In this document: positions 1,700 to 23,305 of the stretch, piece by piece
Layout of the letters: each line of letters starts with the position of its first letter
How positions within the stretch are numbered: the first letter of the stretch is position 1
NCBI GenBank assembly: GCA_047602285.1
Contig: JASGHR010000001.1
Span: 1,326,638 to 1,390,637 of the forward strand
Direction of reading: 5' to 3'
Source: Arachnia sp.
GTDB lineage: Bacteria > Actinomycetota > Actinomycetes > Propionibacteriales > Propionibacteriaceae
DNA length: 64,000 bases
Program-made: the position numbers and the translations under genes
Notes under the pieces: model-generated
Told to the model about the DNA's origin: nothing
Databases searched by the model: none
The model's input: only the letters and a program-made list of their open reading frames with translations

Positions 1700-2280
1700 C
1701 GCGTTGGACGGCAGCCTATCCTGCCTGCCCCTCGCCACCAGGCGACCCATCTCGCCCCACCGCCCCCTGAGGAGCAGCGCCGCCAGCTCACACGCGTGGA
1801 CCTTTCGACCACGGCGTTCAGCGTCACCTCACGGCTGACACAAGGAACGATCCCTGAGGAGCCATCTCGCCCACCGCCGTTCCCTGAGGAGCAGCCCCGC
1901 GAGCTAACCGGCCCCAAGCAAGAACCGTGCGGGACTGCCTCGAAGGGTCCGAACGATCCCTGAGGAGCCATCTCGCCAGGCCAACCACACCCAGCGAGAA
2001 CCATGCGAGATGGCGTCTCGAAGGGTCCGAGACGCGGTCAGGGAGACGCACCAGCATTCGCATGGAGTTTTGACGCACAACCCTGTCTTCTCTGCCCAAA
2101 TGGGCACAGACAGCGGAGTTGTGCGTCAAAATTCCATGCACCCCGACGAGAGACAGCCCAAGGCTGCGCCTCACGGCCTATCTCGCTCCACCGATCCCTG
2201 AGGAGCAGCCCCGCCAGCTCACCGACACCGAGCAAAACCTCGCGCGGGGCCGCGTCTCGAAGGGTCCGAAACCAAGCAGA
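1700..2280. repeat. Intergenic structured repeat block C1 (E1 family, reverse orientation)
   Basis: Three copies of GTCTCGAAGGGTCCGA (about 1938, 2015, 2253) are paired with CCCTGAGGAGCAGCCCCGC-type cores (about 1764, 1883, 2195). The same cores recur in six other blocks of the window. Confidence 0.85.
2061..2138. repeat. 78-nt nested hairpin H1 inside block C1
   Basis: Arms CATGGAGTTTTGACGCACAAC (2061-2081) and GTTGTGCGTCAAAATTCCATG (2118-2138) match 20/21 as reverse complements. Inner stems are CTGTCT/AGACAG and GCCCA-aa-TGGGC. Confidence 0.8.
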
Positions 2281-2333: not shown

Positions 2334-2870
2334 TTGAGGTTCATGGACCATGCGATGACGGTCGGCGCTGTGGACGTTCACTACGACGACGAGCACGGCA
2401 CTGCGCGAGCTGCGCTTGTCGTGTGCCGTGGCCTGACCTTTGCCGACGTGCAGTCCGAGCACGTGGCTGACGTCGCCCGGACGGCGCCGTACGAGCCAGG
2501 TGCGTTGTACAAGCGGGAACTGCCCTGTATCGCGGCCGTACTCGCTCTAGGACCGTCCGTCGACCTGCTGGTCATCGACGGCTACGCCACGCTGGACGCC
2601 GACGGTCGCCCCGGGCTGGGCGCGCACGCGTCCGAGGCGTTGCGCATCCCCGTTATCGGCGTGGCGAAGACGCGATTTCGCACGGCGGCGCATGCAGCCG
2701 AGGTGGTGCGCGGCGCGGGTGTCAGCCCGTTATACGTCACCACCGCGGGAGGGCTCGACATCGCCCAAGCCGCGCGGATCGTGTCCACGATGGCCGGGCG
2801 CTACCGGATCCCGGACGCCCTCCGTCGGGCCGACCGCCTCGCACGAGGCCTCATCCAACCCCGCCAGTAG
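2334..2870 (+). CDS. nfi: endonuclease V-like protein
   Basis: Motifs AVDVHYDD...ARAALVV, LLVIDGYATLDADGRPGLGAHASEAL and PVIGVAKTRF resemble the EndoV catalytic core. TTG start at 2334 follows GGAG at 5-nt spacing; ATG alternatives are at 2343 and 2355. Confidence 0.55.
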   Translation: MRFMDHAMTVGAVDVHYDDEHGTARAALVVCRGLTFADVQSEHVADVARTAPYEPGALYKRELPCIAAVLALGPSVDLLVIDGYATLDADGRPGLGAHASEALRIPVIGVAKTRFRTAAHAAEVVRGAGVSPLYVTTAGGLDIAQAARIVSTMAGRYRIPDALRRADRLARGLIQPRQ

Positions 2871-2951: not shown

Positions 2952-3341
2952 TCACCGGCTGACCCACGGATCCTGCAACAAGGAACTGGGTTCGAAGTAC
3001 TCGCCGTCGTCCTCAGCCGCCACGCAGACGCCCGCAACCACGTACCCGTCGAACGCCCCAGCTCGAACGATGAAGATCGTCGTGTCCTCCGAGGTGAGAA
3101 GCCCGGTCTCCGTGGAGATCCCCGCGGCCTCGACCGGATCCGCTTCGGCGACGACGAGCCCCTCCAGCACGGCCGGCAACTTCATCGCCTTGACGTTCTG
3201 GAAGAGCACGTCAAGGCGGGTCGCGAAAGTCTCCGACTTGGCGCTTCGCAGCAGCAGGCGCGCCATGCCGACCGAGTAGGCCCAAACCTGGAACAGCCGA
3301 TCGGTCTGTTCGATGACGACGGCGCTCACTGTGGCACCCAT
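2952..3341 (-). CDS. hypothetical small protein (immunity-like, last gene of a 3-gene unit)
   Basis: ATG at 3341. It overlaps the upstream ORF by 16 nt. The 129-aa translation has LLLRS...RLDVLFQNV, seen in conserved actinobacterial hypothetical proteins. Confidence 0.55.
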   Translation of the reverse strand: MGATVSAVVIEQTDRLFQVWAYSVGMARLLLRSAKSETFATRLDVLFQNVKAMKLPAVLEGLVVAEADPVEAAGISTETGLLTSEDTTIFIVRAGAFDGYVVAGVCVAAEDDGEYFEPSSLLQDPWVSR

Positions 3342-3694
3342 GGATTCTCGACAGGCTCCTCACTGAGCCCCGCTGACAACAGGCTGGCCTCGATCTCCTG
3401 CATGCTCGGCCGGTAGTGGCGCCGAGGCTGCATCCGCAACTCACTCATCGTCGGCAAAGCCCGCGATGGGCCCCGGTTCCCGCCGGGCACCTCGGTCGCG
3501 CCACCTTCAAGGCCACTGGCGAGAGGCACACCGAGAGCACACAAATCGGGGAGAGCTGACAGGCCCGTCAGCACCAGCCGCTCGGCCTCCCCTGTCCCGA
3601 AGAGACGCGCGACCACCGGGGACTTCTGTCCCATGATGACCACCTCGACGCGATCCGGGAAGTGCCCGACGGCGAAGCTTAGCTGTGTGCTCAT
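3326..3694 (-). CDS. hypothetical protein
   Basis: ATG at 3694 overlaps the upstream stop (ATGA at 3691-3694). 122 aa, co-oriented with its neighbours. Confidence 0.45.
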   Translation of the reverse strand: MSTQLSFAVGHFPDRVEVVIMGQKSPVVARLFGTGEAERLVLTGLSALPDLCALGVPLASGLEGGATEVPGGNRGPSRALPTMSELRMQPRRHYRPSMQEIEASLLSAGLSEEPVENPWVPQ

Positions 3695-3942
3695 CCGTCG
3701 TATGGCTGATTGGGCTTGAGGCTGAAGCGGAGTAGGTCCTTGACCCTGGCCCTCAACGATCGCGCATCCTCCGAGGTTCCGCCGAGCCGCGTCGCGAACT
3801 CCCCCTCATCCACGGCCTCCAGCGCCTCAGTGAGCGAATTCGCCAGGAGAACCAGTTCGTCTCGTGTCGCCACGATCACAACTTCGTCGTCGAGGACCTC
3901 ATCCTCACCGACCCATGAAGAATCACGATGGAGTTGCCGCAT
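3691..3942 (-). CDS. hypothetical small acidic protein
   Basis: ORF 3691-3966 was trimmed to the ATG at 3942, which is preceded by GAGGTG at 6-nt spacing. 83 aa, acidic, with a helical-looking sequence. Confidence 0.45.
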   Translation of the reverse strand: MRQLHRDSSWVGEDEVLDDEVVIVATRDELVLLANSLTEALEAVDEGEFATRLGGTSEDARSLRARVKDLLRFSLKPNQPYDG

Positions 3943-4132
3943 CCGATTCACCTCGATCCAATTCAAGACGTAATGCTAGCCGCCGTCCCGAGCGGTCGCT
4001 TCAGCGCCCGCACCCCGCCAGCCTATGGCTACGGTGCTGCGCGCGAGGCCGAAGTCACCTCTCTGGCCAAGCCATCTGACCAGCGCTCGCGTCGGCGTGA
4101 CGCTGCTCCCGTCTTCCGCTCAGGCCGCCAGA

Positions 4133-4492
4133 CTAACCACGCCGCACGAGTCGCGAGTCGAAGCCGTTGGCGGCCTGCCCGGCCGACTCATCGGTCACGG
4201 TGAACGCGCCGCACGTGCAAACGAGCTTGCAGTCCTCCGACCACAGGATCAGTTCGACGGTCCACTGCCCTGCGGTCGCCTGGCGGGCATGAACCTCGGT
4301 CACTTCGGCGTAGGTCCACGGCTCGGGTATGGAGTTCGTGAAGTGCAAGCCGGAAACGCCGGAGCACACCAAATCGTAGGACGTAGTCACATCCCCATCG
4401 ACGACGTCGATCTGAAGCACGAGGCGGTGCGCGACAGGCTCAAAGCGGACCGACGCGAGCTGCCCGCCCCAAAGAGCGTCAGTAGTGGGCAT
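4133..4492 (-). CDS. hypothetical protein (immunity-like)
   Basis: ATG at 4492 is preceded by a perfect AAGGAGG. The 119-aa translation starts MPTTDALWGGQLASVRFEP... Confidence 0.6.
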   Translation of the reverse strand: MPTTDALWGGQLASVRFEPVAHRLVLQIDVVDGDVTTSYDLVCSGVSGLHFTNSIPEPWTYAEVTEVHARQATAGQWTVELILWSEDCKLVCTCGAFTVTDESAGQAANGFDSRLVRRG

Positions 4493-4882
4493 CAGCCACC
4501 TCCTTGAATTCAGCAACCATCGAGAGGATGCCGTTCAGCAAGGACTCATCGATACTCACAAAGCTTAGTGCAGCGTCGGTGGAGGCCTCAGGCGTTGCCG
4601 CGCACGATCAGTGGCCGGCTTGAACTCGCCTGCTCTCATGAGTGCGCCCGTTCGACGAGACCGGCAGCCCTCCGGAATCGGGTATTTCGCGCCCGCTGAG
4701 AATCAGGTATGCACTACTCTGAGTTAACCCCCGGAGGCAAGGTTGCCGAAAGAATCTGCTCTGCACCCACCCCGGGGCGATGGACGACATGATCAACGAC
4801 ATCCGAAGGGCGGCACTCGTGGCCAGCACGACAGCAACTCAGCGACACCTCGCCCTTTTCAGCGGCCAACCCAACTGACGAC

Positions 4883-5323
4883 ATGGTTTCCTGGCGAGAC
4901 GCGGCCTCCCAGCAGGCCCAAGATGATCTAGACGGTCTGCTCGGACCGGCTCTTGAATTTGCCCAACAACAGCTGGACAAGCGCGGCGAGTTCCATCCCT
5001 ACGCGGTCGTCGTCGACGTAGCTGGACAGCAGCGGATGGTCATGGCAGACATCGCCAGCAATCCGCCCGCCTCGGCTGACCTGATCACCAGACTGATCGC
5101 CGCGCTCTCGGAGGACCGTGACAGCCTGCGGGCGGCTGCGATCGTCGCCGATGTCCGGCTCCCAGAGACCGGCAGCGACGCTGTCCGCGTCACCCTGGAG
5201 CACGCCGAACATGTCGCACTCTCAGTCTTCCTGCCCTACCGACGTCGGTGGCTCGGCCGCAGGATCGACTACGGCGATCTCCAAGCGGGCGCGGCAGCAG
5301 CGCTCATCTGGCCAGGCAACTAG
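4883..5323 (+). CDS. hypothetical protein
   Basis: 146-aa ORF divergent from 4133-4492. Coding-like composition; no motif recognised. Confidence 0.5.
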   Translation: MVSWRDAASQQAQDDLDGLLGPALEFAQQQLDKRGEFHPYAVVVDVAGQQRMVMADIASNPPASADLITRLIAALSEDRDSLRAAAIVADVRLPETGSDAVRVTLEHAEHVALSVFLPYRRRWLGRRIDYGDLQAGAAAALIWPGN

Positions 5324-5410
5324 GTCGTGTTGCGAAAGTGGAAGTGGCCTACTGAACGACGCCCTGCCGCGCCGGGAAGCCGCTCACCACGGCCACCACT
5401 TCGGTAAGGA

Positions 5411-5925
5411 CACCGTTCCTTGAGCCGGCCGTGAGGCGCTAGCCGAACGCCGTGTCGAAAGGTCCCGCACCCGTCCGCCAAGTCGACCACGAGGGCAGCC
5501 CGGCTCTGTGACCACAGTCACTCTTGCTCTCAGTGCATGGATGTTCTTACGCTTCGACGAAGCGCCTCCCCACCTCACCCTCTGTCATCTCCCAGGGCGG
5601 CGGACCGCCGTCCTCCCTCACCGTGACCAACGTTGGCCAGTCTTGCGGCGGTTTCCCTGCACAAATCTCCGTATACGGGCAGCGGCGCAACTATTCGCGC
5701 GGCTGCCCATATACAAAGAATTGTGCGTGGTGGAGGGTGCGACACTGGCTCTTGGAGATAGGTCGGGCTGTGGGTTTCGGACCCTTCGAGACGCAGCCCC
5801 GCAGGATTCTCGCTCGGCGTCAGTCAGCGAGCGGGGCTGCTCCTCAGGGACCGACCGTCGTGCGCTGCTCCTCAGGGACCGGCCGTGGCCCGACCGTGGT
5901 GCGCCGCTCCCTTGGATCCCGAACT
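5411..5925. repeat. Intergenic structured repeat block C2 (E1 family, forward orientation)
   Basis: Module A variant CCGTTCCTTGAGCCGGCCGTGAGGCGCTAGCCGAACGCCGTGTCGAAAGGTCCCGC runs 5413-5468. It is followed by hairpin H2, then GGACCCTTCGAGACGCAGCCCCGC...GCGGGGCTGCTCCTCAGGGACCG (about 5779-5861). Confidence 0.85.
5659..5726. repeat. Hairpin element H2, copy 1
   Basis: GCACAAATCTCCGTATACGGGCAGC (5659-5683) faces GCTGCCCATATACAAAGAATTGTGC (5702-5726) as an imperfect inverted repeat. A better-preserved copy lies at 29829-29896. Confidence 0.75.
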
Positions 5926-6057
5926 CAGCACCCAGCCGTGGTCGTTAGAGCCGAAACCAGGGGCAAGGAGTTGCGGCAGCAAGCTCAGGGCACCCATCTC
6001 ATCGGAGGCCGACCGGGTCTGCGTGAACCACACCATTTCGGCTTTTCGCAACACGAC

Positions 6058-6648
6058 CTAGCCCAGCGCCGTCAGCCCACACTTGGCTTCCTTACGCACC
6101 CATGCACGCTCGTCGGTGAGCATCGACTCAAGCCCGGCGCGCGCTCGCGGATCCTTGAGCTTTCGCAGCGCAGCCACCGCATGACCATTCACGGCAGGAT
6201 CGTCCAGCAGCTCAAGGGCCACGTAACAGGCGTCCGGGTTCTTCGAACGCCCCAATCCGAGAACGACCATCTCGCGGTCCCGGCCGTACGAGCGTTCACG
6301 AGCCAGGGCGACTAACTCGTCGAACCACCGGTCATCCCACACCACCTCGAGGGCGTTCCCGACAATCCAGCGCAACCCGGGCTCAGTCTCGCCATCAACC
6401 TTCTTGAACTCCTCGATGAGCGGTCCCACCGCGGACGGCTTCGCCCACGGAACACTGAGAGCCCTCACCAGCTCACCCTTGACCATCCGATTCGTTGCAC
6501 GCTGCAAACTGGCAAGCAGCACGGGGATAGCATCCCGATACCTGCCTCCCGACGTCCGCAGATCAGCAATCGACGGGACGACGTAGCCCACCGCGGCCAG
6601 ATCCCGGAGGACCTCCTCCTCGCGCGGCACCGGATAGATGTACATCAC
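6058..6648 (-). CDS. HEAT-repeat protein (immunity-like)
   Basis: 196 aa with repeated helical units: ...AIPVLLASLQ..., ...VRALS..., and LLDDPAVNGHAVAALRKLKDPRARAGLESMLTDERAWVRKEA. Confidence 0.6.
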   Translation of the reverse strand: MMYIYPVPREEEVLRDLAAVGYVVPSIADLRTSGGRYRDAIPVLLASLQRATNRMVKGELVRALSVPWAKPSAVGPLIEEFKKVDGETEPGLRWIVGNALEVVWDDRWFDELVALARERSYGRDREMVVLGLGRSKNPDACYVALELLDDPAVNGHAVAALRKLKDPRARAGLESMLTDERAWVRKEAKCGLTALG

Positions 6649-6654
6649 CCCAGC

Positions 6655-6915
6655 CTAGTGATGTAGACGAACGTCCACCTGACGTCGGTCGCGTTCCCGA
6701 AGCCGGAAGACGACCTCCTCCATCGAGTCGAAAAGCTCAGGCGTGGGCAACTCGAAGAGGGCCTTCGACAGGAAGTCGTGATCCGACGAGTCCAGCTCGA
6801 TGTCCTCAGCGCTATGGACAGCTTCGGCCCAGCGTTCGAGCATGACTGGCGATAGAGCACCTTGGCTGAGCGCTTCGTGAGCTCGTCGAAGAGCGGCGCG
6901 GTCCAGGCACGACAA
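6655..6915 (-). CDS. hypothetical small protein
   Basis: 86-aa ORF, co-oriented in the array. It has a TTG start with only a weak RBS, so the boundaries are uncertain. Confidence 0.35.
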   Translation of the reverse strand: MSCLDRAALRRAHEALSQGALSPVMLERWAEAVHSAEDIELDSSDHDFLSKALFELPTPELFDSMEEVVFRLRERDRRQVDVRLHH

Positions 6916-6969
6916 AGATCCACTTGGCCGCGACTCCAGTCGTCTCGGCCTTCGAACGCTGCGTCGAGA

Positions 6970-7254
6970 TCAGGGCCCCAGGCCATACGTCGCGTCTTCC
7001 CACAGATGATCGGTGAGTTCGCGGCGAGCATCGAGGATCGCGCCGAGACCTTCAAGATCACGAATAACGTCGGGCTCGAGCCCTATGCTCCATTCGTAGA
7101 TCTGGGTGCACAGCGTCTCGAACGCTACGAGCCACTCACCTCCATCGATCAGCGACTGCACGTTACCGATGTCGTCCGGCGTGAGTCCCGCAGCTGCGTC
7201 GATCGCCTTGTGAAGTCTCACGGTCATCTCCTCAGGACCCGGTCTCGTGGTCAT
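6970..7254 (-). CDS. MafI-like immunity protein
   Basis: About 90 aa with LIDGGEWLVAFETLCTQIYEWSI, the pattern I associate with the MafI immunity family. ATGA overlap with the upstream ORF at 7251-7254; an alternative ATG is at 7227. Confidence 0.5.
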   Translation of the reverse strand: MTTRPGPEEMTVRLHKAIDAAAGLTPDDIGNVQSLIDGGEWLVAFETLCTQIYEWSIGLEPDVIRDLEGLGAILDARRELTDHLWEDATYGLGP

Positions 7255-7519
7255 CGGAGGAGCACCAAGCGCCCCTCGACCAGTCGAAACTCGTACCGAT
7301 GCCCGACCGCGTCAGAGACCACAAGAAGACCATCACTCCAAGTGGCACCATCTACCACCTCACCGAGTTCAATCCTCGACACCTCCGATGCACCGACCAA
7401 GCTACGAACCGAGGACTCGCAGACCAACAGAAGAACACTGCCACTCCGGAAGACATAGCGGATGTCGTCATCCACAGTGATAATGCGTCGGTCCGGGTCA
7501 TCCTCCCAGTCGAGAACCA

Positions 7520-8587
7520 CTAGTGTCCCGTGTTTGAAGTCTGTTTACGGTGGGCTTTGGTGAGGATGTCGTCTGCGGTTTTGGTCCACACGAATGGTTC
7601 GCAGCGTTCGTTCCAGCCATCGATGAAGGTCTCGATCGCGGTGACGAGTTCTTTGACGCTGGTGAAGGTGCCTCGGCGAATGGCTTGACGGGTGATGATC
7701 CCGAAGAAGATCTCGACCATGTTCAGCCACGACCCGGAGGTTGGGGTGAAGTGCATCGTGATCCGGGGGTTCTTCGCCAGCCAGGCCTTGATCTTGGGGT
7801 GCTTGTGCGTGGCGTAGTTGTCGGCCACCACGTGCAGCTTGACCCGAGGGTAGGTCTTCGCGGTGAGCTTGAGGAAGTCGAGGAACTCGGCATGGGTGTG
7901 GCGTTGGTAGCAGCGGTCGGTGACCTTCCCGGTCGCGACCTCGAGCGCGGCGAACAGGCTGGTGGTGCCGTTGCGGACGTAGTCGCGGGTGGCTCTTTCT
8001 GGCAACCCGGGTCGCAGCGGAAGGATCGGCGCGGTGCGGTCTAGGGCTTGGACCTGGGTCTTCTCGTCGACGCAGACCACGACCGCTTTCTCGGGCGGGT
8101 TCAGGTAGAGCCCCACCACATCGCGGACCTTTGCGTCTAGCTCGGGATCGGTGGAGAACTTGAACGTTCCACGCCGCCAGGGCTGCAGTTTCCACTTGCG
8201 CCAGATCCGGGCGACCTCACCAAAGGAGATCCCCAACTCCTGACCCAACAGCCGCGCCGACCAGTGCGTCACCCCCAACGAGGCCGGCGGCGGAGTCAAC
8301 GTCGCGACCACGACCGCGTTCTCATCGATCACCGCGGGGCGACCCGACCGAGCCAGATCACTCAACGCCTCGATACCACCGGCCTCGTAGCGAGACCGCC
8401 ACAGGTTCACCGTTGGACGCGATACCCCAACCTGCCGACCGATCTCGGTGTTCGACTCACCAGCGGCGGCCAACAATACGATCCGGGCCCGCTGGGCCAA
8501 CCCCGCCCCCACCGTCGAGGACCGGACAAGCGAGCTCAGCCTCGCCTCATCACCAGGACGCAGAACCAGCGGGGACGCTATCGACAT
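7520..8587 (-). CDS. IS630-family transposase
   Basis: The N-terminus shows the helix-turn-helix pattern ...RARIVLLAAAGESNTEIGRQVGVSRPTVNLWRSRYEAGG.... The C-terminal DDE region includes ...VVCVDEKTQVQAL..., ...LHVVADNYATHKH... and ...SGSWLNMVEIFF.... ATG at 8587. Stop TAG at 7520-7522 uses the duplicated TA. Confidence 0.85.
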   Translation of the reverse strand: MSIASPLVLRPGDEARLSSLVRSSTVGAGLAQRARIVLLAAAGESNTEIGRQVGVSRPTVNLWRSRYEAGGIEALSDLARSGRPAVIDENAVVVATLTPPPASLGVTHWSARLLGQELGISFGEVARIWRKWKLQPWRRGTFKFSTDPELDAKVRDVVGLYLNPPEKAVVVCVDEKTQVQALDRTAPILPLRPGLPERATRDYVRNGTTSLFAALEVATGKVTDRCYQRHTHAEFLDFLKLTAKTYPRVKLHVVADNYATHKHPKIKAWLAKNPRITMHFTPTSGSWLNMVEIFFGIITRQAIRRGTFTSVKELVTAIETFIDGWNERCEPFVWTKTADDILTKAHRKQTSNTGH

Positions 8588-8639
8588 ACCCCATTGTCTC
8601 AACCAACCACCGTAAACCTATTTACGACACGCGACACTA
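7521..8639 (-). mobile_element. IS630-family insertion sequence with TA target duplication
   Basis: The 1115-bp element (7523-8637) is flanked by TA at 7521-7522 and 8638-8639. The 31-nt imperfect terminal inverted repeats, GTGTCCCGTGT...TTTACGGTGG and the reverse complement of CCACCGTAAA...ACACGCGACAC, match 23/31. It carries a single transposase ORF. Confidence 0.85.
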
Positions 8640-8840
8640 GCTCCCGCGCAGACCACAGACAGACGACACCACCCACAACCTCCAGCGACACATCACACCA
8701 TCCAGCCATCGTAAAATGCCGCTCTGAGTGTCCATCAACGCAGAGGTGAACCGCAGCGGTCATACTCTGTCCACAATGAACGGCGTCAATCTCGTAGCGA
8801 CGCCCCCTGTTCTCTACGTACCTAGAATAGGTTGACCCTC

Positions 8841-8984
8841 TCATAACTGCCCCATCTGGATCGAGCCTGCATCTGCGGCCTCACGCCACGCTCCCGGCGC
8901 TATCAGCCCATAGGCGATGATGCCCCGCTTTTCCTCACCATCGACGATGATCGTCAGATTGTCTCGAGCAAGCAACGATCTCAT
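8841..8984 (-). CDS. possible 47-aa micro-ORF
   Basis: ATG at 8984 lies 11 nt after the upstream stop and is preceded by GGTGAGGGGGA. Its stop overlaps the next start (ATGA at 8841-8844). Support is positional only. Confidence 0.3.
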   Translation of the reverse strand: MRSLLARDNLTIIVDGEEKRGIIAYGLIAPGAWREAADAGSIQMGQL

Positions 8985-8994
8985 CGAATCCCCC

Positions 8995-9831
8995 TCACCT
9001 TCGTCTCGAATCCGTCCCCTCAGATGCCCGCGGTCCCCCATGATTCTCGCCCGGACCGTCAGATATGCCACCGGCACGCAGCAGTTCCACCAGGATCTCG
9101 TCGAGGGTCGCGACGGCCTGCGCCGTAGGCAGATCCACCGCGACGATGCCGTCCGCCCCATCTTCATACTCAAGCCCGACTGAACCGAGGGCTGAAACCA
9201 GCGCCTCATGCTGAGTCTCGTCAGAACAGGTGAGGACCCGAGTGTCGTGGCCGGCGCTGCGCACTTGGCGGACAACCAGCCTGGCCCCCATTCGAGACCG
9301 GACCTGCACCAGGTCGTACCGATGGAACCCCGAACGAGAGAACGGCACGCTCAGGATCTCGACGACGTCCTCCATGCCCGGTTCGTCGACTCGCCTCGCC
9401 CAGAGGTGCTCAAGAGAGTAGGGACGGCCCGGCATGAGGGCATAGGTCAGAGGGAAAATCCGAGGTCCGTCCTCCTGCGACACCTGCGGCCGAGCGTGGT
9501 TCAGCTGCCGGATAGGTTGCACCCAGCCGAGAAGCGCGTCCTCCCACGCCGCACTGAAGTCTGCTGCCGCCACCCGCCTCCCGGAACCGGTGGCCAGGAT
9601 CCGCGGAAGGTCGTCGATCCAGATGTCCGTCGTCTCGGGCGGCCTGGGCATCGGCGGCTCCCAGAACGCCGGCCGTGGCCGTGGATGCCCGTAGTCCACC
9701 ACCACATCAGCCCGATCGCCCTGCCGGTAGGCAATCACCCGCCGAGGTTCCCCGTCGATCAGCTCGACGAGGTAGCCAGACGGATCCTCCACCCCGCTGG
9801 CGACACTGACGAATTCCGATTCAGACGGCAT
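8995..9831 (-). CDS. hypothetical protein, C-terminal half DUF4265-like (immunity-associated)
   Basis: 278 aa. The C-terminal EHLWARRVD...ILSVPFSRSGFHRYDLVQV...SAGHDTRVL...AVDLP resembles DUF4265 as I recall it. It overlaps the upstream gene by 11 nt. Confidence 0.5.
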   Translation of the reverse strand: MPSESEFVSVASGVEDPSGYLVELIDGEPRRVIAYRQGDRADVVVDYGHPRPRPAFWEPPMPRPPETTDIWIDDLPRILATGSGRRVAAADFSAAWEDALLGWVQPIRQLNHARPQVSQEDGPRIFPLTYALMPGRPYSLEHLWARRVDEPGMEDVVEILSVPFSRSGFHRYDLVQVRSRMGARLVVRQVRSAGHDTRVLTCSDETQHEALVSALGSVGLEYEDGADGIVAVDLPTAQAVATLDEILVELLRAGGISDGPGENHGGPRASEGTDSRRR

Positions 9832-10582
9832 ATCCTGCCTTCCTCGTCGCGCTCACGATCCGCTCCGAGAGGGTGTGGATCGGCGGCCGCGCTGACGTGA
9901 TGCGCACGGCCCAGGCCACCCGATCAGATCGGGCATCCATCTCCACAACAGCACCGAAGTTCCTCAATTGGGCGACGCATTCGAGCTTGTCGAGCCCAGC
10001 CTCGTCGAAGCCCGCGGCTATCCAGGACGCGTTCAGGGAGTCGCGACGAATCACCTCCTTCACGACCGGCAGCCCCTCGCTGTCAGCCAGGACAACCCAC
10101 TGCCCGGGATACACGGTCGTGGTGTAGAAGGAGCTGGCGCACACCTCCATCTTCTCGTCGTCGATTCGCCGAGCAGGGATCTCCTCAAGGACGCCGACGA
10201 GCCCATGCCGCAAGTACACGAAGGTGTCGGCACGGTCTGCCCACACCGCCTCCGGGTGGGTCGACACAACCCACGTCCGGCGGGCGGCCTCTCTCCCGCG
10301 GCTCCACACAGCCTCGAACTCCTCCCTTGTGAGGAGATCTCGATACTCACCGAAGAGCGTTCCCTCCAGGAAGAAGCTGAGCGAGTCGGGCCCCTCACCC
10401 CAGAGGTAGGTCGGCCCGACATGTTCGCCACTCGACGAGACGTGCACCATGCCGTCACCGGTGAAACTCACACTCCGCGACAGACCTCCGTCAACCACCT
10501 CGTAGTACGAGGCCAGCACTCCAGTCCAGCGCGGCGGCCGGTACTCGACGAACCAAGAATCACCCGACGGCAACATCGTCAC
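9821..10582 (-). CDS. hypothetical protein (array member)
   Basis: 253-aa ORF with coding-like composition and a GTG start at 10582. Co-oriented and overlapping the next ORF. Confidence 0.5.
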   Translation of the reverse strand: MTMLPSGDSWFVEYRPPRWTGVLASYYEVVDGGLSRSVSFTGDGMVHVSSSGEHVGPTYLWGEGPDSLSFFLEGTLFGEYRDLLTREEFEAVWSRGREAARRTWVVSTHPEAVWADRADTFVYLRHGLVGVLEEIPARRIDDEKMEVCASSFYTTTVYPGQWVVLADSEGLPVVKEVIRRDSLNASWIAAGFDEAGLDKLECVAQLRNFGAVVEMDARSDRVAWAVRITSARPPIHTLSERIVSATRKAGYAV

Positions 10583-10874
10583 CGTCGCGCCGTGCCGACG
10601 AGCATCGGAGGGTCCGGAACGAAGCTGTGCAGCCCGTAGTCACCAACCGACATGTTGGTCACGAAGTCAGCCATCACACCCCTTCTACGTGAGCCATCCC
10701 CAGCGCTTCAATGCGCCGTCCACGGCCAGCCTATGGGTGCGCCGCTTCACGCGAGGGGGAAGCTGCACAGAGGGAACACACGTGCCCGGCCATAGTCGGT
10801 CAGCAGAAGCTCCGCACGCGCCGCTACCCGAGCGGTCGTCGAGATGGCTGCGCGCGACCGCTCGCGACGGGACT

Positions 10875-11291
10875 TCAACGCTCGTGTACCTCGACGGCAA
10901 GCTCCCCGCCCGCGACACGCGCAGACACGCTCAGGCCATCGAACGCAACGGTGAGTCCCGCAGCGCCACCGACCTCGTTGAGGTCCAGCACCGCCGAAGT
11001 CACAACCCGGCCCACCAGCCGGCACAACTCAGCCGACATCGGCGCCTGCTCCCAGAGCCCGACGCTCACCGCCAGCTCCCTTCGCTGGCTCGCGGACGCG
11101 CGAGCGAAAGGGTCGGACCACGGCTGTTCCGATAGTTCCAAAGTCCAGTCGGTCTTGACATCCACCGTCAACCAGGTGCCGTCATCCCACGTGAACTCGA
11201 TAGGGCCCGTCTCGCTCGCGGGCCCGCCTTCGAATCGGTGATGGAAGCGGCGAAGCGAGACGCAGCGGCGCCCTCGAAGCGAGTCAATCAA
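10875..11291 (-). CDS. hypothetical protein (array member)
   Basis: 138 aa. TTG start at 11291 overlaps the upstream stop (TTGA), so the start is uncertain. Confidence 0.45.
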   Translation of the reverse strand: MIDSLRGRRCVSLRRFHHRFEGGPASETGPIEFTWDDGTWLTVDVKTDWTLELSEQPWSDPFARASASQRRELAVSVGLWEQAPMSAELCRLVGRVVTSAVLDLNEVGGAAGLTVAFDGLSVSARVAGGELAVEVHER

Positions 11292-11455
11292 TGCGAAACA
11301 CCTCCGCTCAGCAGCGGCTGGGCATCCTCAGGATCGAACATCCCGGTTCGCAGTAGGCCGAGGAAACCCTCCGAGCGGTCATATTCCTGGTCAACCTCCT
11401 CGATCTGCCTCTGCAATAAACTCACAGTGGTAATCAGCCGCTTGGAGTCCGTCAC
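11288..11455 (-). CDS. hypothetical small protein
   Basis: The ORF was trimmed to the GTG at 11455, which forms a GTGA overlap with the stop of 11452-11658. About 55 aa. Confidence 0.35.
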   Translation of the reverse strand: MTDSKRLITTVSLLQRQIEEVDQEYDRSEGFLGLLRTGMFDPEDAQPLLSGGVSH

Positions 11456-11658
11456 AATCGAGTCGCCGCCTCTGCAAGCAGCCACTCAACGGCTTCGACT
11501 GGCACGTCGGCCTCAAACATCGTCACCGTACGTCGACCAGACTCGCCCTCCTCGAAGACCTCAGCCACCCGGAAGCCATCGCCCCTCGTGAGCTCGAGAG
11601 CCATTCCGTCCCGCTCGCCGACCGAGCTAGCAAGAATAAGCCGATATCCGGCGGTCAT
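11452..11658 (-). CDS. hypothetical small protein (immunity-like)
   Basis: ATG at 11658 is preceded by GGAGGTG at 5-nt spacing. The 68-aa translation starts MTAGYRLILASSVGERDGMALEL... Confidence 0.55.
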   Translation of the reverse strand: MTAGYRLILASSVGERDGMALELTRGDGFRVAEVFEEGESGRRTVTMFEADVPVEAVEWLLAEAATRL

Positions 11659-11806
11659 CGCAGCACCTCCGACCACCCCATGAAACCGCCATCGTCTTTT
11701 GATTCGCGTCCGACGCCCAGCGGAATCTCAGTTTCTGGCAGCCCTTCCGAGCGCGCCGGGCATCCGCACGCTGACCAGGTATACAGCTTGGTCACGAGCG
11801 AACCGT

Positions 11807-12754
11807 TCAGCCATACACTGGCGCGAGGGTGCCATCGAAGAGTCCTTCTATCGCAAGATCCCTCACGTCTGGATCACTACTCCTCAACGCCACCTCCCGA
11901 AGCTCGGCCCTGAACTCACGATGCCCCTGCGCCAGAAACTGCGCGCCACCGAAAACCCGCCAGTCATTCATATTGGCCGCCACCTGATCCATCAACACCG
12001 GAAGCAGGAACCTCTCCCGAGCATCGTATCCAATCCTACCCATAAGCACACTCACCCCACCGAGCCATCGATCTGACAACGACGCATCAACAAGGTCCTC
12101 CATAAGCGGAATAGTCACACTCGGCCCCAGCACCTTTAGCGCCGAGTAGGCCACAGAAGGCTCCTCATTCAGCACCTGACGCAGGAACGACACGACGCCG
12201 TCAAGATCCGACAACGCCTCCTCCCGCAAGCCGACGACCACCGACATACGATCAAGCGCCGAGGCAACCACGGACTCCACTGCCGAAGACCCATCCACCG
12301 GCCCCAAGGGCACCGACGACTCGACACCACTGGCACCTACGACAGCTCCCACACTCTGACGCACACCGTGATACCTCAGCACCTCACTTGCTCGCTTCTG
12401 AAGCTCAGGGTTCCCGACAGAAGCCTCCTCGACGGCCAACGCCAGCCCACTCTCCAACGTCGCACGAGGCGCAACACCGACCGCGAGGGTCGCCTCCGTG
12501 CCGTCTACATCAAGAACGGCCCTCGCAGCCAACAACGGAAGCAACTGCTTCACGACACCGCCGGGCGACAACATCGAAACCACCGCGTACAACGCATCCG
12601 ACGGCTGCTCCGAGAGCAGTCGTGTCAAGACACGCACACCCTCACTCGAATCAACCGTCCAGTCGGCCCTGCGCCGATAAAAGCCATCCAGAAGACCACG
12701 AGAGATCACACCAGCAGACTCCACCACTCGTACAATCGCTTTCACAACACACAC
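11807..12754 (-). CDS. candidate cognate immunity protein of the Rhs toxin (helical-repeat-like)
   Basis: This is the first ORF downstream of the Rhs stop (31-nt gap). About 315 aa, Leu/Ala/Val-rich with helical-repeat-like composition. GTG start at 12754 or 12745. Confidence 0.55.
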   Translation of the reverse strand: MCVVKAIVRVVESAGVISRGLLDGFYRRRADWTVDSSEGVRVLTRLLSEQPSDALYAVVSMLSPGGVVKQLLPLLAARAVLDVDGTEATLAVGVAPRATLESGLALAVEEASVGNPELQKRASEVLRYHGVRQSVGAVVGASGVESSVPLGPVDGSSAVESVVASALDRMSVVVGLREEALSDLDGVVSFLRQVLNEEPSVAYSALKVLGPSVTIPLMEDLVDASLSDRWLGGVSVLMGRIGYDARERFLLPVLMDQVAANMNDWRVFGGAQFLAQGHREFRAELREVALRSSDPDVRDLAIEGLFDGTLAPVYG

Positions 12755-12785: not shown

Positions 12786-15700
12786 CTACTTCTTGAAAGA
12801 TCTTTCCCATCGTATGGACATGATGGCCTGATCGAACTCGGAAACCATCAGTTCTCGAGTCGGATAAATCAGTATATGGCTAGAATCCTCAATAGTTGGG
12901 GCACTGACCCACTCCAAACCGGGCCCAAGATCCATGAGCGGAGCCTCCCAGATCCACCCGCTCGCCTGTATCATGTCCTTGTTCAGCGAGGCCGAAGCAC
13001 CCAGGATACCCGGATCCCCCGGCGCGAAGGGACCAACGATCTGACTGGCATCCTCCGAGGGAAGACCAAAATCCCTCATCGCACGTACCGGGCCAACGCG
13101 AGACGCGTTCCCGGCGCGATACATGATCTTACCCTCCATCTCTGCGTTACAGGATTGGATAGCGTGCCCCCGCGCCGCACAACGTTCTTCGTTTAGCCGA
13201 TCTCCAGATTCCTTCCACTGCTCTGCAAGACCGGCCTCATTCCAGATAAAGTCAGCCGCATCCGCCGCGTAGGATGCCAACCGGATATAAGGGTTAAGTT
13301 TGGGCAACAATTTAAGAACCATCGAGGGACCAAACCGCGGCCTCGCCGGCCTATTTGCGGGCCGCGTTTTCGGTTCTTGTACAGCTCGGGGCTTTACCGA
13401 CGGCAAATTTGCTTTTGTCTTCTCTATCTTTCGTCCACCAGTTGTGACGTAATGATTAGCGTCGGGGTTCTGGTGGTAGTTCCGAGGGTTGAGACCAGTG
13501 GCGTCATGCGAGTTGATCGGGTCCGCGGCCGTGTAGCCGTAGCCGTTCAACGTCTGTGTGTTCGCCGCATCCAAGACGGGATCGACGCTGAGGAACCGGC
13601 CCACCTTCGGGTTGTAGAGCCGCGCACCGGTCTGCACATACCCCGTCGTGGTGTCAGTCGGTCGGTCCAGATACGTGTGATCCGTCTGCCAGGTACCGAG
13701 CCCATCGATGCGGTTGCCGTACGGGTCGTGGTACCGCCACGTGGTCTTACTCAGATCACTCCAGTCGACGGCGACAGAAGCGGTACCCGTCTGATCGCCG
13801 TCGAGGGCCTGCAGCACCGCGGCCCCGACGCGCTGCGCCACAGACCTGCCGTTATGGCTGTAGAACCTCGTGCCGGTCTTGGTGCTCGTGCCGGTGAGCC
13901 TGAGCTCCCCCGCCGGGGTGTAGACCGTGCTGCCGTTCGGGTCCTTCCGCATCAAGATGCTTCCGCCGGCGCTGTACAGGTAGCTGGTGGTCTTCCCGCT
14001 CTTGCTCGTGCTCGCCACCTTGCCGAGCGTGTTCCACGCCAGCGACTCGGTGATGCCACCGGTGGTCGATGACGTGGTGTTGCCCGCGCTGTCATACGTG
14101 TAGGTGGTCGTCGTCCCTGTTCCGCCCGTGGGAGTCGAGGTCTGCGACGCAATCGCGTGCGCATGCCCCGTGACGCCCAGGGCATAGGTTGTGGTCGTGG
14201 TGGCCGCCGGGAGCTGCACCACCTTGTTCTTCGTCTCCTTGGTGCGCACCCCCGCGTCGTTGTGCGTCCACTGATGCCACATCGGCAGGAAGCCGTAGGT
14301 GGTGGAGGCCGTCGAGGACGGATTCGCCACGCAGTCGTCGTTGCTGGTCCAGGCATCCGTCAGACGGGCCCTGGTGTCGTAGCGGTAGCACATGGTGCGG
14401 ACCTTGGCCGGGCTATTGAAGTTCGCCGACTGAGCAGTGCGGACAATCTGGCCGGAGGCGTTTCGGACGTAGGTGAATGCCTGGATCTGCGGCCGGGTGG
14501 TCGCCCCGTTGAGGTAGGTGTTGTCGACGGCGAGGGTCTCCACGTTGTACGTGACGCTCTGAACGAGGCTGTCGCCCTCTCGCCCCACCGTCTGGGACGG
14601 GAGGCCGTGAGGTGTGTAGCTCGTCGAGTTCACGTACTTGTTCGTGCCCGTGGTCGCGTTCGGCAGGCCCTGGGGCGTGTAGGTGCGGGTCACGGTCTCC
14701 GCGGGCAGCCCGCCCAGCGCCGGGAGCGTCTGAGTGGCTACCTGGCCGGTGTTGGTGTAGGTGACCGAGGCGCTGTACGTGCCCGCGAGCGCTCCCTGGT
14801 TGGCGGGCACCACGAGGCTGCTGCCGGTGGGGCGCGCATAGGCGTCGTAGCCCGTGACCTTTTCGACGAACGGGTTCGCGGTGTCGCCGTCGATATACGA
14901 CTTCGTCTCGGTGAGCTGCCCCGGCTTGAGGGTGTCGAAGACCCACTCCCCGATCAGCTTGTCACCCGAACCACCGACCAGCTTGGTCATCCGGCCGAGC
15001 TTGTCGTAGGTGTACTTGAGAGTACCCGCGGTGCCGCGCGCATCGACGACGGTGGTCTTCTCCCCGAGATGGTTGTACGAAGTGTTCGTGGTTCCGGTGT
15101 CGGGATCGACAGCCTTGGTGCGCCGGCCACCTGCGTCGTAGGTGTAGTACCAGACTGCACCTATCGGATCGGTCAGCCTGACGAGCTGGCCGACGCCGTC
15201 GTAGGCGTAGCTTGTCGTGGTGAACGTGCCCCCGGAGACGACATTGCCGCTAACGGTGGGCGCAGTGACGTAGTCGAGCTTCTTGAGTGTCTGGCCAAGC
15301 CCGTTGACCACCGACGCCGTGATGGGCGCGGCTGCGGGCGGGAAGACCGTGGTCTGATCACCCGAGTAGACGGTCGTGGTACGTCGTGTCTCGGTGACCC
15401 CCTTGTAGGAGATGACGGTGGTCGGACGGCCCAGCGCATCGTAGGTGCTGGTGGTCCGGGAGTTGATGCCCGAATCGGCCGTGCTGATCCTCGTCTTAGC
15501 CGGATCCCCCGCCGTGTACCAGCGGTTGTTGGTGCGCACCGCCCAGCCGTGCGAGTCGTAGAACGTGTCGTCCACGATGCGTCCACCGCCGACGGCGCCG
15601 GTCTGCGTCTGGAGCAGCTGCCCGAAGGCGTCGTAGAGGGCGACGCTCGTCACCTGCGTCGGCGTCGTCCCGCTGATGGCCGTCGTGGTCTTGGTGGTGA

Positions 15701-18700
15701 TGGTCTCGTAGTCGGTGGGCGAGTTGGTGTAGGCGAAGGTCTGCGTCGCCGGGCCGCTCTTCGGGAAGCCCGGCTCCCAGAGGTCCGTGATTCTCCCCAG
15801 CGCGTCGTACGTCGCCTCGGTGATCCTGCCTGCGACGTCGACCTGCTTGAGGATCATGCCGTCCAGGTCATGGTGCGTCTCGGACGACTGCCCCAGCGCG
15901 TTGGTGACCGTGACCTTGGTCACGGGCCCGCCCGTGGCAGGCGTGTACGCGGTGGTGGACGTGCGGCCCGTGGTGTCGCTCGCCGACGTGAAGACGGTGC
16001 TGGTCAGCAACCGCCCGTAGGAATCGAAGGCCGCGGTGGACTTCGCCCACTCAGACGCTGCGACCGCCGTATCCGTGCGGGTCGGGTTGCCGATGCCGGG
16101 CACAGCTCCCAAGGTAGTTGAACCGTCGTAGTAGGTACGCGCCCCCGAGAGCAGCTTGCTGGTGGGCGCACCGCTGCTGGGACAGGCATCTGCGTATGTC
16201 GCCACCTCCGCAGGGGTCGCCAGGATGTTCCGTGATGTGTTCTCGGCATAGCTGGTGGTAGTACACGTCGATTCCGCTCCGCTGGCCAGCGTGGAGGCGG
16301 AGATCTCTCGTCCTCGCGCATCACGGGTATAGGTGACGGTCGAATTGAGCCACCCACCAGCCGCCGTGGCCGTGTAGCTGCGTTGCTTCGCCACCCCCGT
16401 CACACGGGCAACGAGCGAGCCGAGCCCGGTGCGCGCTCGGGTAGCTGTGGTGGCATAAGTCGCGAAGTCGGTGATGGTCTTCGCCGCCGGCGTGGTATCC
16501 GTCTCTTTGAGGAACGACTGCGACTCGTAGGCAGCGCCTGCGTACTGGTCGGAGTCGACGATCGTCTCCCCGCGAGAGTTCGTCACCGTAACGCTGCGGG
16601 TGCCCCCGGCCGAGAGCTTGTCACCGTTCATGCCACGTAGGTAGTAGGTCTTCGTCAGGGTACGGGCGTCTGCGGCGCCGTTCGATGAGTTGCTGGGATT
16701 CCCCGTAAGCGTGTTCACCTGGGCATAGCCGCGGAACTGGCTCCAGGTCCTCTCTCCGGCCTTCACCAGCTCGTTGTCGTCGAAGTGCCAAGCAGGGGTG
16801 CCCACGTACTGGTAGGTCGTGAGCTGGCCGGGTGACGCCGCCTGCGAGTCCTGCACCATCACCGAGGAGACGAGGTACTTGTGGAAGAAGTCGGTCTTCA
16901 TCGTGCCGTTCATGGGCCATCGGACCGGGAAGCAGCGCCGCGTGTTAGCCGAGAGATCTGTTGTGGACGGGACACTGCTCGCTGTGCAGTCCTTCGGCGT
17001 GTATGTCACCGACAGGATCGCGCCGTTCTCATCCTTGATCTGCACCAGACGCCACATCAGCATCCCGTGATAGCCCGAATACCCCGCCACGCGGTTGTCC
17101 AAGAGGTCTCCGCCGAATTCGACCGGGCCGCGAACGATGGATGCCCCCGAGGGGGTGTAGGTGGTGTGCTTGATCGATTGAAGCCACAGCGCGTCGTCAC
17201 CCAGGTCCGGATACGTCTGCGTCAGGTTCCAGACGTCACGCGTCACGAACGTACCCGCGGAATTACGCGCCTTGGTCGTGATGGCCGTGATCCGAAGCCG
17301 AGTCCAAAACGTGGGCGAAACAACGGTGCAAGCGCCATCGCCCTCACATCTCAGGTCCTGAGGGGTGTCCGGCCAGTGATCGGCGTTGGCGGGCGTGAAC
17401 TGGAGCGGGTCACAGGTGAACGAGGAGCTTGGAATGCAGCGCTCGGCGGCCGTGAACACCACCTGCGCCTCGGCGACCGTCCCGTAGACAGAGCCGCCGC
17501 TGTTACGCAAACCGTAGTCGATGCGGCTGGGCACACCGCCCCTGGTGTAGGCGACGCGAGACGTGCCGAGATTGGCCGAATAGTGGTTGGTCTCCTTCGA
17601 GTAGTAGTAGGCCATGGCGTTGCCGTGGACGTCCTCCACGTAGTCGAGATTCCATCTCCAACCCTGAACACAGCGCGAGGAAGCGAAGCCCGACGACGAG
17701 TAGCACGGGTCACCGGCGTGCGCTCCGTAGACGGGGACCGTCCACGTAGCACCGGTGAGCGTCTGATCCGTACGGCCCGGCAATGCCTCGGAGCCGAAAA
17801 GGTACTTCGTCCCATCCGGGGTCGTCAGCCGCCAGTGCTCTCCATCCTTGGCCCCGCTCGGCGCGCCGGTGAGGCGCTCGACACGGGTGCCATCGTCGGC
17901 GCGGAGCTTCCATACCCCGCTTGCGTCGTCTCGTACGAGCTCCCCCGAGTGCCCTCCGAAGTTGAGGAAAAGCGCCTCGCCCGCCCAGCACAGGTCTGCC
18001 GTGTTGCCGGCACCACCAGCAGGGTGGTCCTTGCACGTGACGTAGCGCCGCTCGATGAAGCCGGCTTCGTAGGACCAGCCTTGGCCGATCAAGCCCGGCT
18101 GATTGTTCGACGAAGCCACTCGTCCATCGACGACGGAGGACGAGTAGGTCAGCGCGACGTCCGGAACGAGCCCTCCGGTGAGACCCAGCGACGGAACACC
18201 CAGGGGATAGGCCCAGGTGAAATCACCGGTAGAAGACCCCGCTGACCACGATGACGACGGCGCAAGAGGCTGGGCTGCAAACGAACCCGACGCCCCGTCA
18301 ACGCCTGCCGCCACCGCAAAGACAGTGGCCCCGGCGCCTGCACTGCTCTTGGGGAGCGCAGCCACCAGACTCTTCTCGTCGCCCTCTCGGCTCGTCTCCA
18401 GAGACTTGACCGGCACTGAGCACTCGGGATCGTCGGGGCTCGTCGCGTAGCAAGACGGCAGCTCGACCACTCGCAGTCGGTCCTCAGCGGCCGCAGCGAA
18501 ACCCGCATCAGCCAGGGCCGCCGTGTCGATACGAACCTCGGCGCCCTGAGGGGCATCGACGGTGAACGCGAGCCCCACTCCTCCGGCGTCGATCACCTCC
18601 GCTGTGGGCAGCACCTCGACCTTCGCGGACTCCGGACCCCTCAGCTCGATGGGTGTGCGTCCGGCCCGCACCCACGCCTTCCGGCCCTTGCTACCGTCCG

Positions 18701-21558: not shown

Positions 21559-21788
21559 GAAAGACCCTTCGGTTTCCGGAAATATACGAGAGGAGGCGGC
21601 GACCTCGCCGGCACCGTCTATCAGGAAACCTAGGGCTACGGCGCAGTGTGCGTGGCGAAAGTTTCAAAGAGGGCACATGTGTACCCTGCTCGGCTCGCAG
21701 GTGCAGGGCTGGTGCCCGTCATGCCCTCTCCAGCCGCCCCCGCACGGGTTCCCCGACCGTCGGCAGCGGCACCGCGTAGGGTGACGAC

Positions 21789-23263: not shown

Positions 23264-23269
23264 CAAGCG

Positions 23270-23305
23270 AAGAGCCGGGCGACGCCATCGCGTCGCCCGG
23301 CTCTT
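23270..23305. terminator. bidirectional stem-loop between convergent genes
   Basis: AAGAGCCGGGCGACG (23270-23284) and CGTCGCCCGGCTCTT (23291-23305) are perfect 15-bp reverse complements. Confidence 0.6.

Follow-up and report, generated by a model that had tools for sequence, protein, structure and literature searches.

The region at positions 2952-12754 of a 64,000-nucleotide (nt) stretch of Arachnia sp. DNA (the window, which always means the whole stretch; GenBank assembly GCA_047602285.1, contig JASGHR010000001.1, forward-strand positions 1,326,638 to 1,390,637) is filled with small genes that lie between an rhs gene of full length and an EndoV-like one. We consider it probable that this region is a heterogeneous poly-immunity locus, which is located behind the full-length rhs gene on a genomic island of ~20 kb. 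Five of its genes, encoding a MafI-family protein, a HEAT-repeat protein, two DUF4265 proteins and a small acidic protein (11452-11676), are supported as putative immunity genes by their families or by the position of their homologues, as judged from sequence comparison. An earlier note, made by a model that read only the letters of this DNA, had described the region as an immunity-only stockpile. This description is apt in that the locus is heterogeneous and toxin-free and contains five genes with immunity evidence, and it goes too far in that seven to eight genes are untyped and the genes do not run as one chain from rhs.

Orphan immunity candidates and their toxin partners elsewhere

Against which toxins would the five typed proteins act? 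The two DUF4265 genes stand in tandem on the minus strand, which is the rhs strand and the strand of all array genes described below unless stated otherwise. The gene at 8995-9831 encodes a 278-amino-acid (aa) protein that consists of an N-terminal extension and a DUF4265 domain. Its match to PF14085 (E=1.5e-10) lies well above the gathering threshold (41.6 bits versus 27), and a single-protein homologue search with it returned only the query itself. The gene at 9821-10582 encodes a 253-aa protein with an N-terminal extension and a C-terminal domain whose direct Pfam match is weak (E=0.037, 14.5 bits). An exhaustive search of 1.84 billion representatives retrieved two full-length relatives of this protein as well as matches to its C-terminal domain. 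DUF4265 is present in 6 of the 11 sequences that were aligned with it, and the protein itself aligns with the DUF4265 family and retains the HPxxxWADRAD and ExxxARR motifs. Thus, the second protein is a diverged DUF4265 member. The sole solved DUF4265 relative that was matched by the family profile is an uncharacterized structural-genomics protein from Neisseria gonorrhoeae (PDB 5UEB, E=1e-5), which is the single experimental template for modelling the family.

DUF4265 genes recur next to one type of nuclease domain. An HNH toxin domain is encoded directly upstream of DUF4265 in 6 of the 11 sampled loci, where it is carried by an orphan Rhs C-terminal cassette in Ralstonia (locus L083), by full-length Rhs proteins in Microbacterium (L086) and in two further loci (L092 and L093), by a 61-aa HNH fragment in Jatrophihabitans (L087), and by an effector of an extracellular contractile injection system (eCIS; L091). 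The HNH sequence is nearly identical in the three toxins that were directly compared, namely those of Ralstonia, Microbacterium and Jatrophihabitans. Moreover, the Rhs-HNH gene of L092 is followed by a tandem DUF4265 pair (268 and 177 aa), which is the same arrangement as in the window. In another locus (L090), DUF4265 adjoins the gene for a HEAT protein with 34% identity to that of the window, in a toxin-free array that also contains SUKH-4, SUFU, Imm1 and Imm33-like genes. Three HNH toxin sequences used as queries had no match in the array. We regard the proteins encoded at 8995-9831 and 9821-10582 as candidate orphan immunity proteins against HNH toxins, and DUF4265 may be a widespread, unannotated immunity family for one HNH domain that is found on Rhs proteins, orphan cassettes and eCIS effectors.

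The HEAT-repeat gene (6058-6648) encodes a 195-aa protein that matches HEAT_2 (E=2e-13). When the concatenated array was compared with plasmids by tblastn, a homologue with 62% identity was found on plasmid p001 of Aeromicrobium yanjiei (NZ_CP045736; locus L081). The plasmid homologue starts 4 nt after the gene for an 89-aa "putative toxin" that belongs to Tox-REase-7 (Pfam, E=5e-18), and the same 7-kb plasmid stretch contains barstar, DUF6188 and DUF4265 genes and homologues of two further window genes, 4883-5323 and 3691-3966. HEAT repeats have been listed as immunity to Tox-REase-7 in actinobacteria (PMC3482391). The A. yanjiei Tox-REase-7 sequence had no match anywhere in the window, and a PDB search with the window HEAT protein matched only designed alphaRep proteins. 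By these comparisons, 6058-6648 is a candidate orphan immunity gene against Tox-REase-7 nucleases.

The gene at 6970-7254 encodes a MafI-family immunity protein of 94 aa, which matches positions 5-64 of the 67-position NF033691 profile (E=9e-11) with a score above the curated cutoff (41.4 bits versus 31). No MafB-type toxin is encoded near this gene. The earlier note had tentatively typed three array members by eye as MafI-like, HEAT-repeat and DUF4265-like (8995-9831), and the profile matches bear out all three assignments.

The fifth gene (11452-11676) encodes a small acidic protein that comprises 68 aa when read from MTAGY, the form annotated in a public collection. Its homologue in Jatrophihabitans telluris (46-48% identity, E about 5e-15) starts 3 nt after the gene for a 190-aa protein with a signal peptide, and this position makes 11452-11676 an orphan immunity candidate. 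The J. telluris region (CP097332, 4606-7423) is composed of three consecutive pairs, in each of which a signal-peptide protein of 185-202 aa is followed by a small protein. None of the paired proteins has a Pfam match. These pairs look like Sec-secreted toxin/immunity pairs of undescribed families, and the 11452-11676 homologue occupies the first immunity position among them.

In addition to the queries described above, toxins were sought throughout the array. No toxin domain was detected by Pfam or NCBIfam in the array open reading frames (ORFs), in alternative frames or in gap ORFs, a result that a toxin of an undescribed family could escape. Likewise, tblastn with the whole Rhs protein yielded no match better than E=1.5 and hence no Rhs core fragment in the array. 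The absence of partner toxins and Rhs core ends that had been asserted from inspection of the translations is therefore borne out within the tested families.

Organization of the locus and of its genomic island

By our own gene models, 14-15 genes and one insertion sequence (IS) of the IS630 family lie between rhs and the EndoV-like gene, and 13 of 14 genes are on the rhs strand (two-sided binomial p ~0.002, our own estimate). In most array ORFs, GC is low at second codon positions and high at first and third positions, which is the pattern of real genes in this DNA. The earlier note had reported a co-oriented chain of at least 15 ORFs. The ORFs that it listed are real, occur at the coordinates given for them between rhs and the EndoV-like gene and are predominantly on the rhs strand, but they amount to 14-15 genes plus the IS630 element and do not form a single chain. 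It had also reported that many genes are linked by start/stop overlaps. Every quoted string is present in the sequence (ATGA at 3691-3694, 7251-7254 and 8841-8844; GTGA at 11452-11455 and 10579-10582; TTGA at 11288-11291; an 11-nt overlap at 9821-9831; and a 16-nt overlap at 3326-3341). However, three of the quoted overlaps link no real genes, given that the GC pattern of ORFs 8841-9275 and 6645-7061 is not that of coding DNA and that no ORF of at least 40 aa ends at 10579. Five overlaps of 4-16 nt among array genes are real.

The array differs in composition from its surroundings, as had also been noticed by eye. Its GC content is 0.58-0.67 (~65% GC here), compared with 0.71-0.74 (up to 74%) in the flanks, and its GC at third codon positions (GC3) is likewise reduced, to 0.55-0.85, compared with 0.88-0.98 in core genes. 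The array proteins are acidic, with an isoelectric point (pI) of 4.2-5.3, except for the HEAT protein (pI 6.8). No similarity was found among array members apart from the two DUF4265 genes, whose kinship is visible only at the profile level. Thus, with this pair as the only exception, the array was not built by local duplication.

At least three units make up the locus, a mosaic of a proximal block, a convergent pair of the HEAT gene and 4883-5323, and a distal four-gene operon. The proximal block begins behind rhs (12786-18992, minus strand), which encodes a 2068-aa protein with RHS_repeat/YD repeats and a signal-like N-terminal segment. Its Rhs core ends at aa 1834, as delimited by the TIGR03696 Rhs_assc_core match at aa 1756-1834, and is followed by a basic (pI 8.9) C-terminal toxin domain of 234 aa (aa 1835-2068, window 12786-13490). 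This domain had no match in Pfam, NCBIfam or the PDB, and a metagenome scan retrieved no relatives. The first gene of the array (11807-12754) starts 31 nt past the rhs stop codon and encodes a 315-aa acidic all-alpha protein. Like the region that encodes the Rhs C-terminal domain, the gene is low in GC, and HEAT_2 matches its product only faintly (E=0.02). No homologues were found by PDB sequence search, by metagenome scan or by jackhmmer against 94 fetched loci. Its AlphaFold2 (AF2) model, computed from the single sequence, contains 18 helices, at a confidence (pLDDT) of 44 that is too low for use. The Rhs C-terminal domain and the 11807-12754 protein could constitute a new toxin/alpha-solenoid immunity pair. 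Eighty distant Rhs loci (best identity 39%) share no gene with the array, except for a HEAT-like gene in one and an IS630 element in another. The locus with the IS630 element, from Actinomadura rubrisoli (NZ_SMKU01000185, 9428-13548), has a run of small co-oriented ORFs that includes an IS630 transposase with 67% identity to that of the window, which hints that IS630 elements recur in such arrays.

Next to the 11452-11676 gene, the proximal block contains a 55-65-aa ORF (11288-11485), which overlaps its neighbours at GTGA 11452-11455 and TTGA 11288-11291 and had no Pfam or NCBIfam match, and an acidic 138-aa ORF (10875-11291), which had no match in Pfam, NCBIfam, PADLOC, PHROGs or the PDB. Both display a coding-like GC pattern. 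The single-sequence AF2 model of the latter has a pLDDT of 40, too low for use. Between the MafI and HEAT genes lies a small coding-like ORF of 62-86 aa (6655-6915; GC at codon positions 1, 2 and 3 of 0.75, 0.39 and 0.69) that was absent from the list of the earlier note. It is in frame with both genes, separated from each by a single stop codon, and it fills the slot that is held by the Tox-REase-7 fragment in the Aeromicrobium plasmid. It has no Pfam match and no similarity to Tox-REase-7. A HEAT pseudogene or toxin remnant in the gap at 6646-6969 was considered and rejected, as no significant alignment was obtained.

Outside the distal block described below, the other untyped ORFs likewise had no match in Pfam, NCBIfam, PADLOC or PHROGs. 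Jackhmmer searches with every untyped ORF against 16,167 ORFs from the 94 fetched loci disclosed no new relationships, and PDB sequence searches with five array proteins and the Rhs C-terminal domain returned nothing informative. For most untyped genes, even collections of several billion proteins contain next to no detectable relatives. Seven of them (11288-11485, 10875-11291, the IS-split gene described below, 6655-6915, 4133-4516, 3326-3694 and 2952-3341) could represent undescribed immunity families.

The only array gene on the plus strand (4883-5323; 146 aa) is convergent with the HEAT gene. The gene that converges on the HEAT homologue in A. yanjiei p001 shares 74% identity with it, and 4883-5323 is a conserved partner of the HEAT gene. 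The distal block (2952-4516) consists of four minus-strand genes with coding-like GC, at 4133-4516, 3691-3966, 3326-3694 and 2952-3341, of which the last three are coupled by overlaps (3691-3694 and 3326-3341). This block diverges from 4883-5323 across about 370 nt; thus, it cannot be transcribed from rhs and needs its own promoter, which is predicted to lie within 4493-4882. For the proximal block, transcription is predicted to run on from rhs. Its profile matches are all below threshold (YxiG-like, E=0.003; Imm32, E=0.08; DUF7543, E=0.007) and serve as leads rather than assignments. The homologue of 3691-3966 in A. yanjiei p001 is 48% identical, frameshifted and located next to DUF4265.

Two mobile elements interrupt the array. 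The presence of an IS630, which had been reported previously, is well documented by the 1121-bp element at 7520-8640 (minus strand), which matches DDE_3 (E=5e-21) and NF033545 (E=2e-76) and is bounded by imperfect 34-nt terminal inverted repeats (7520-7553 and 8607-8640). Its junction sequences identify the target as CTAG with TA duplication. Excision of the element together with one TA copy fuses ORFs 8599-8844 and 7251-7520 in frame into a 158-aa protein, and the two ORFs are therefore the halves of one inactivated gene (7251-8844, minus strand; 8638-8844 plus 7251-7520). Such a loss is in keeping with dispensable cargo. The rebuilt protein had no match in Pfam, NCBIfam, PADLOC or PHROGs.

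The second element (5323-6058; 736 bp) corresponds to what had been recorded as a repeat block that splits the array. The repeats are indeed present, but the block is a discrete insertion that resembles a non-autonomous miniature inverted-repeat transposable element (MITE). It ends in perfect 18-nt terminal inverted repeats, CTAGGTCGTGTTGCGAAA, at 5320-5337 and 6044-6061, which are the only two copies in the window, and it occupies a CTAG, with duplication of TA, precisely between the stop codons that end the HEAT gene and 4883-5323. The corresponding empty site is found in A. yanjiei p001 (L081, 6548-6551), where a single CTAG forms the overlapping stop codons of both homologues. This empty site identifies 5323-6058 as a MITE-like insertion that shares its target preference with IS630. 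The locus is under remodelling by CTAG-targeting mobile elements, and such IS630 and MITE elements, rather than Xer sites or integrases, may build and reshuffle arrays in this Gram-positive lineage. The repeats carried by the MITE-like element belong to an interspersed family of intergenic and in part palindromic repeats of ~50-110 nt with the core GGACCCTTCGAGACGCAGCCCCGC...GCGGGGCTGCTCCTCAGGGACCG, which often form tandem clusters and occur at window positions 1750-2235, 5414-5980, 29829-30633, 50579-52104, 54410-54813 and 55990-58948. They look like repetitive extragenic palindromic (REP) or MITE-type elements of this genome.

The array belongs to a genomic island, as judged by comparison with one related genome. 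Synteny with the window, at 77-87% nucleotide identity (blastn), was found for a Tessaracoccus sp. contig, and the syntenic blocks end at window positions 21770 and 1682. In this contig, the Aminotran_4 and GATase1-like genes are ~55 nt apart. Given this spacing and the break in synteny, the window segment of about 1716-21769 constitutes an island of ~20 kb that is absent from the relative and comprises repeat elements, the EndoV-like gene, the array, rhs and an upstream gene of 898 aa. The comparison with the Tessaracoccus contig revealed no flanking direct repeats at the island junction. The EndoV-like gene (2334-2870, plus strand), which converges on the last array gene, falls within the island and is not a core flank. 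The 898-aa gene (18970-21663, minus strand, the rhs strand) overlaps the rhs start, has a GC3 of 0.75 and matches no Pfam family. It may encode an accessory or export partner of the Rhs protein. Housekeeping proteins encoded in the window fall into clusters with Tessaracoccus and Arachnia proteins at 90% identity or above. The window contains no tRNA gene, and no integrase domain was found among the scanned ORFs, in agreement with the earlier observation that neither marks the edges of the region.

Two features lie outside the island. A second indel relative to the Tessaracoccus contig is located at window 23257-23333, which lacks the RIO1-like gene and the 146-aa gene of the relative's 10640-12048. 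Farther downstream, at window 49604-49918 and 50004-50249, a tandem repeat with an 18-nt period and 11 copies stands beside a weak HNH-like tblastn match, in which 83 aa align at 26% identity (E=0.004) with the HNH domain of the Ralstonia Rhs C-terminus.

Known systems and rival explanations

Heterogeneous polyimmunity loci were defined by Zhang, de Souza, Anantharaman, Iyer and Aravind (2012, Biol Direct 7:18; PMC3482391) as tandem, co-oriented and closely spaced unrelated immunity genes without toxins between them; they were reported in actinobacteria and proposed to provide pre-emptive protection against the toxins of non-kin. The region described here resembles these loci in that tandem unrelated immunity genes, including a HEAT member, form a toxin-free array in an actinobacterium. 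The at least four tandem genes of unrelated immunity families that characterize such loci are represented here by the MafI, HEAT, two DUF4265 and 11452-11676 family genes, and no toxin gene or cassette of the tested families interrupts them. An adjacent XerC/D-type recombinase, a frequent but not obligatory feature of polyimmunity loci, is absent from the scanned ORFs. The array further departs from the classic loci in that it lacks the SUKH, SuFu and numbered Imm families, adjoins a full-length rhs gene, is broken by IS630, a MITE-like element and one opposite-strand gene, and leaves half of its members untyped.

Three other types of array are comparable. A Rhs-linked poly-immunity cluster has been described at Stenotrophomonas vgrG6 (bioRxiv 10.64898/2026.07.13.738213), and Rhs-associated poly-immunity arrays are also attributed to Martinkus et al. 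(2026, Curr Biol 36:176) as cited in that preprint. In these arrays, the gene of an Rhs effector precedes its cognate immunity gene and a variable set of mutually unrelated, non-cognate ones; the order would be the same in ours if 11807-12754 is the cognate gene. Atypical GC and signs of horizontal acquisition are also common to both. However, they are Gram-negative and depend on a type VI secretion system (T6SS; VgrG/PAAR), whereas the window is Gram-positive DNA that encodes a Rhs protein with a signal-like N-terminus outside any T6SS context. Their mobile elements are Xer sites or integrase/tRNA, in contrast to the IS630-type elements here. Orphan rhs C-terminal cassette arrays (Poole et al. 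2011, PMC3150448; Koskiniemi et al. 2014, PMC3967940) likewise lie directly downstream of a full-length rhs and are immunity-related, but they keep toxin fragments with a piece of the Rhs core, none of which was found here by tblastn or Pfam. The Bacteroidales acquired interbacterial defence (AID) and recombinase-associated AID (rAID) clusters (Ross et al. 2019; bioRxiv 10.1101/471110) are also horizontally mobile orphan immunity arrays against toxins that are not encoded by the cell. Unlike our array, they reside on mobile elements with dedicated recombinases, none of which was found here, and have no toxin gene attached. Thus, the category has been known since 2012 and Rhs-linked arrays were described in 2026, and the modest additions made here are the DUF4265-HNH pairing and the orphan gene set.

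Several observations weigh against the interpretation of the region as a poly-immunity locus. For seven to eight of the 14-15 genes, neither a significant family or homologue nor a usable structure model was obtained, and their immunity role is suggested by association only. The region is not one compact operon, given the gaps, the convergent gene, the divergent distal block and the two mobile-element insertions; the non-coding gaps of the proximal block measure 130, 292, 150 and ~320 nt. The role of 11807-12754 as the cognate immunity gene of the Rhs C-terminal toxin is presumed from its position only. A homologue of 4883-5323 with 38% identity is found in an Arthrobacter plasmid between tadA and ycaQ, a housekeeping-like setting without toxin context. 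At least one array member has been inactivated by IS630. The scanned ORFs contain no integrase or recombinase domain, leaving the IS630 transposase and the MITE-like element as the only mobile functions, and the one comparison that bears on a putative variation of array content between related strains is the absence of the whole island from one relative, as no second genome with the island was found.

The array could instead be the residue of successive replacements of the Rhs C-terminal toxin and its immunity gene, in which the toxins were deleted and the immunity genes kept. This account, which we consider rather unlikely, overlaps with the poly-immunity interpretation, since the retained genes would still act as orphan immunity genes. 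It agrees with the start of the array directly after rhs, with the displaced cassettes that are seen downstream of rhs in L083, L086 and L092, and with the predominance of Rhs C-terminal HNH domains among the known DUF4265 partners, and deletions could have left the non-coding gaps of 130-320 nt as scars. However, no Rhs core end or toxin remnant persists in 10 kb, whereas the orphan cassettes of L083, L087 and L081 keep such fragments. Furthermore, the toxins paired with the MafI and 11452-11676 homologues are not of the Rhs type, the four distal genes stand as a unit of their own, and the HEAT gene and 4883-5323 are shared as a block with the plasmid of another family at 62-74% identity, which indicates lateral acquisition. 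It is quite unlikely, in our estimate, that only the five or six typed genes are immunity genes and that the rest is unrelated or decaying island cargo, some of it not genes at all. In addition to the untyped ORFs, the IS-split gene and the non-toxin context of the 4883-5323 homologue, this possibility draws on the abundance of chance ORFs at 65% GC (138 ORFs are listed in 16 kb) and on a GC3 as low as 0.55-0.67 in some ORFs. The untyped ORFs nevertheless have low second-position GC and are coupled by overlaps to neighbours that are typed or conserved; a public collection contains four of them as annotated proteins; 3691-3966 recurs beside DUF4265 in A. yanjiei p001; and immunity genes are usually fast-evolving, family-less small proteins (PMC3482391).

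An anti-phage defence island or a prophage remnant would also be a low-GC island with mobile elements and many small genes of no recognizable family. This explanation is highly improbable for the present region, where PADLOC matched nothing beyond a generic HEAT repeat, PHROGs matched nothing, tblastn found no match in 50,697 phage records, no integrase domain occurs among the scanned ORFs, no tRNA is present and the typed genes belong to toxin-immunity families. Both readings were rejected on these searches. Predominant assignment to phage or housekeeping functions, which the earlier note had named as the outcome that would speak against it, was not observed; no array gene received a phage, defence or housekeeping assignment.

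Proposed role of the array

Orphan immunity arrays are thought to allow a bacterium to survive toxins that are delivered by non-kin neighbours, and most work on them has concerned Gram-negative T6SS systems and gut Bacteroidales. For the probable poly-immunity locus of Arachnia sp., we propose that the secreted Rhs protein would carry its C-terminal toxin out of the cell and that the 11807-12754 protein, by virtue of its position, would neutralize this own toxin. The further genes would supply unrelated small, mostly acidic cytoplasmic proteins, each of which would bind one type of toxin that the cell itself does not make. The two DUF4265 proteins would be directed against the conserved HNH nuclease domain of Rhs and eCIS effectors, the HEAT protein against Tox-REase-7 nucleases, the MafI protein against MafB-type toxins and the 11452-11676 protein against a small secreted toxin. 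If expressed, the array as a whole would guard the cell against toxins from non-kin neighbours. A more far-reaching proposal, in which the untyped genes are new immunity families, DUF4265 is an HNH immunity family and IS630 and MITE elements drove the assembly of the array, is possible but on balance doubtful.

The locus overturns nothing in the current understanding of polymorphic toxin systems. It provides a worked example of an orphan immunity array in an actinobacterium of the Propionibacteriaceae, together with the comparison to an empty site and with partner predictions open to bench tests, such as DUF4265 against the conserved HNH domain and the HEAT protein against Tox-REase-7. As a by-product for annotation, 6 of the 11 sampled contexts show DUF4265 behaving as an immunity family for HNH toxins.

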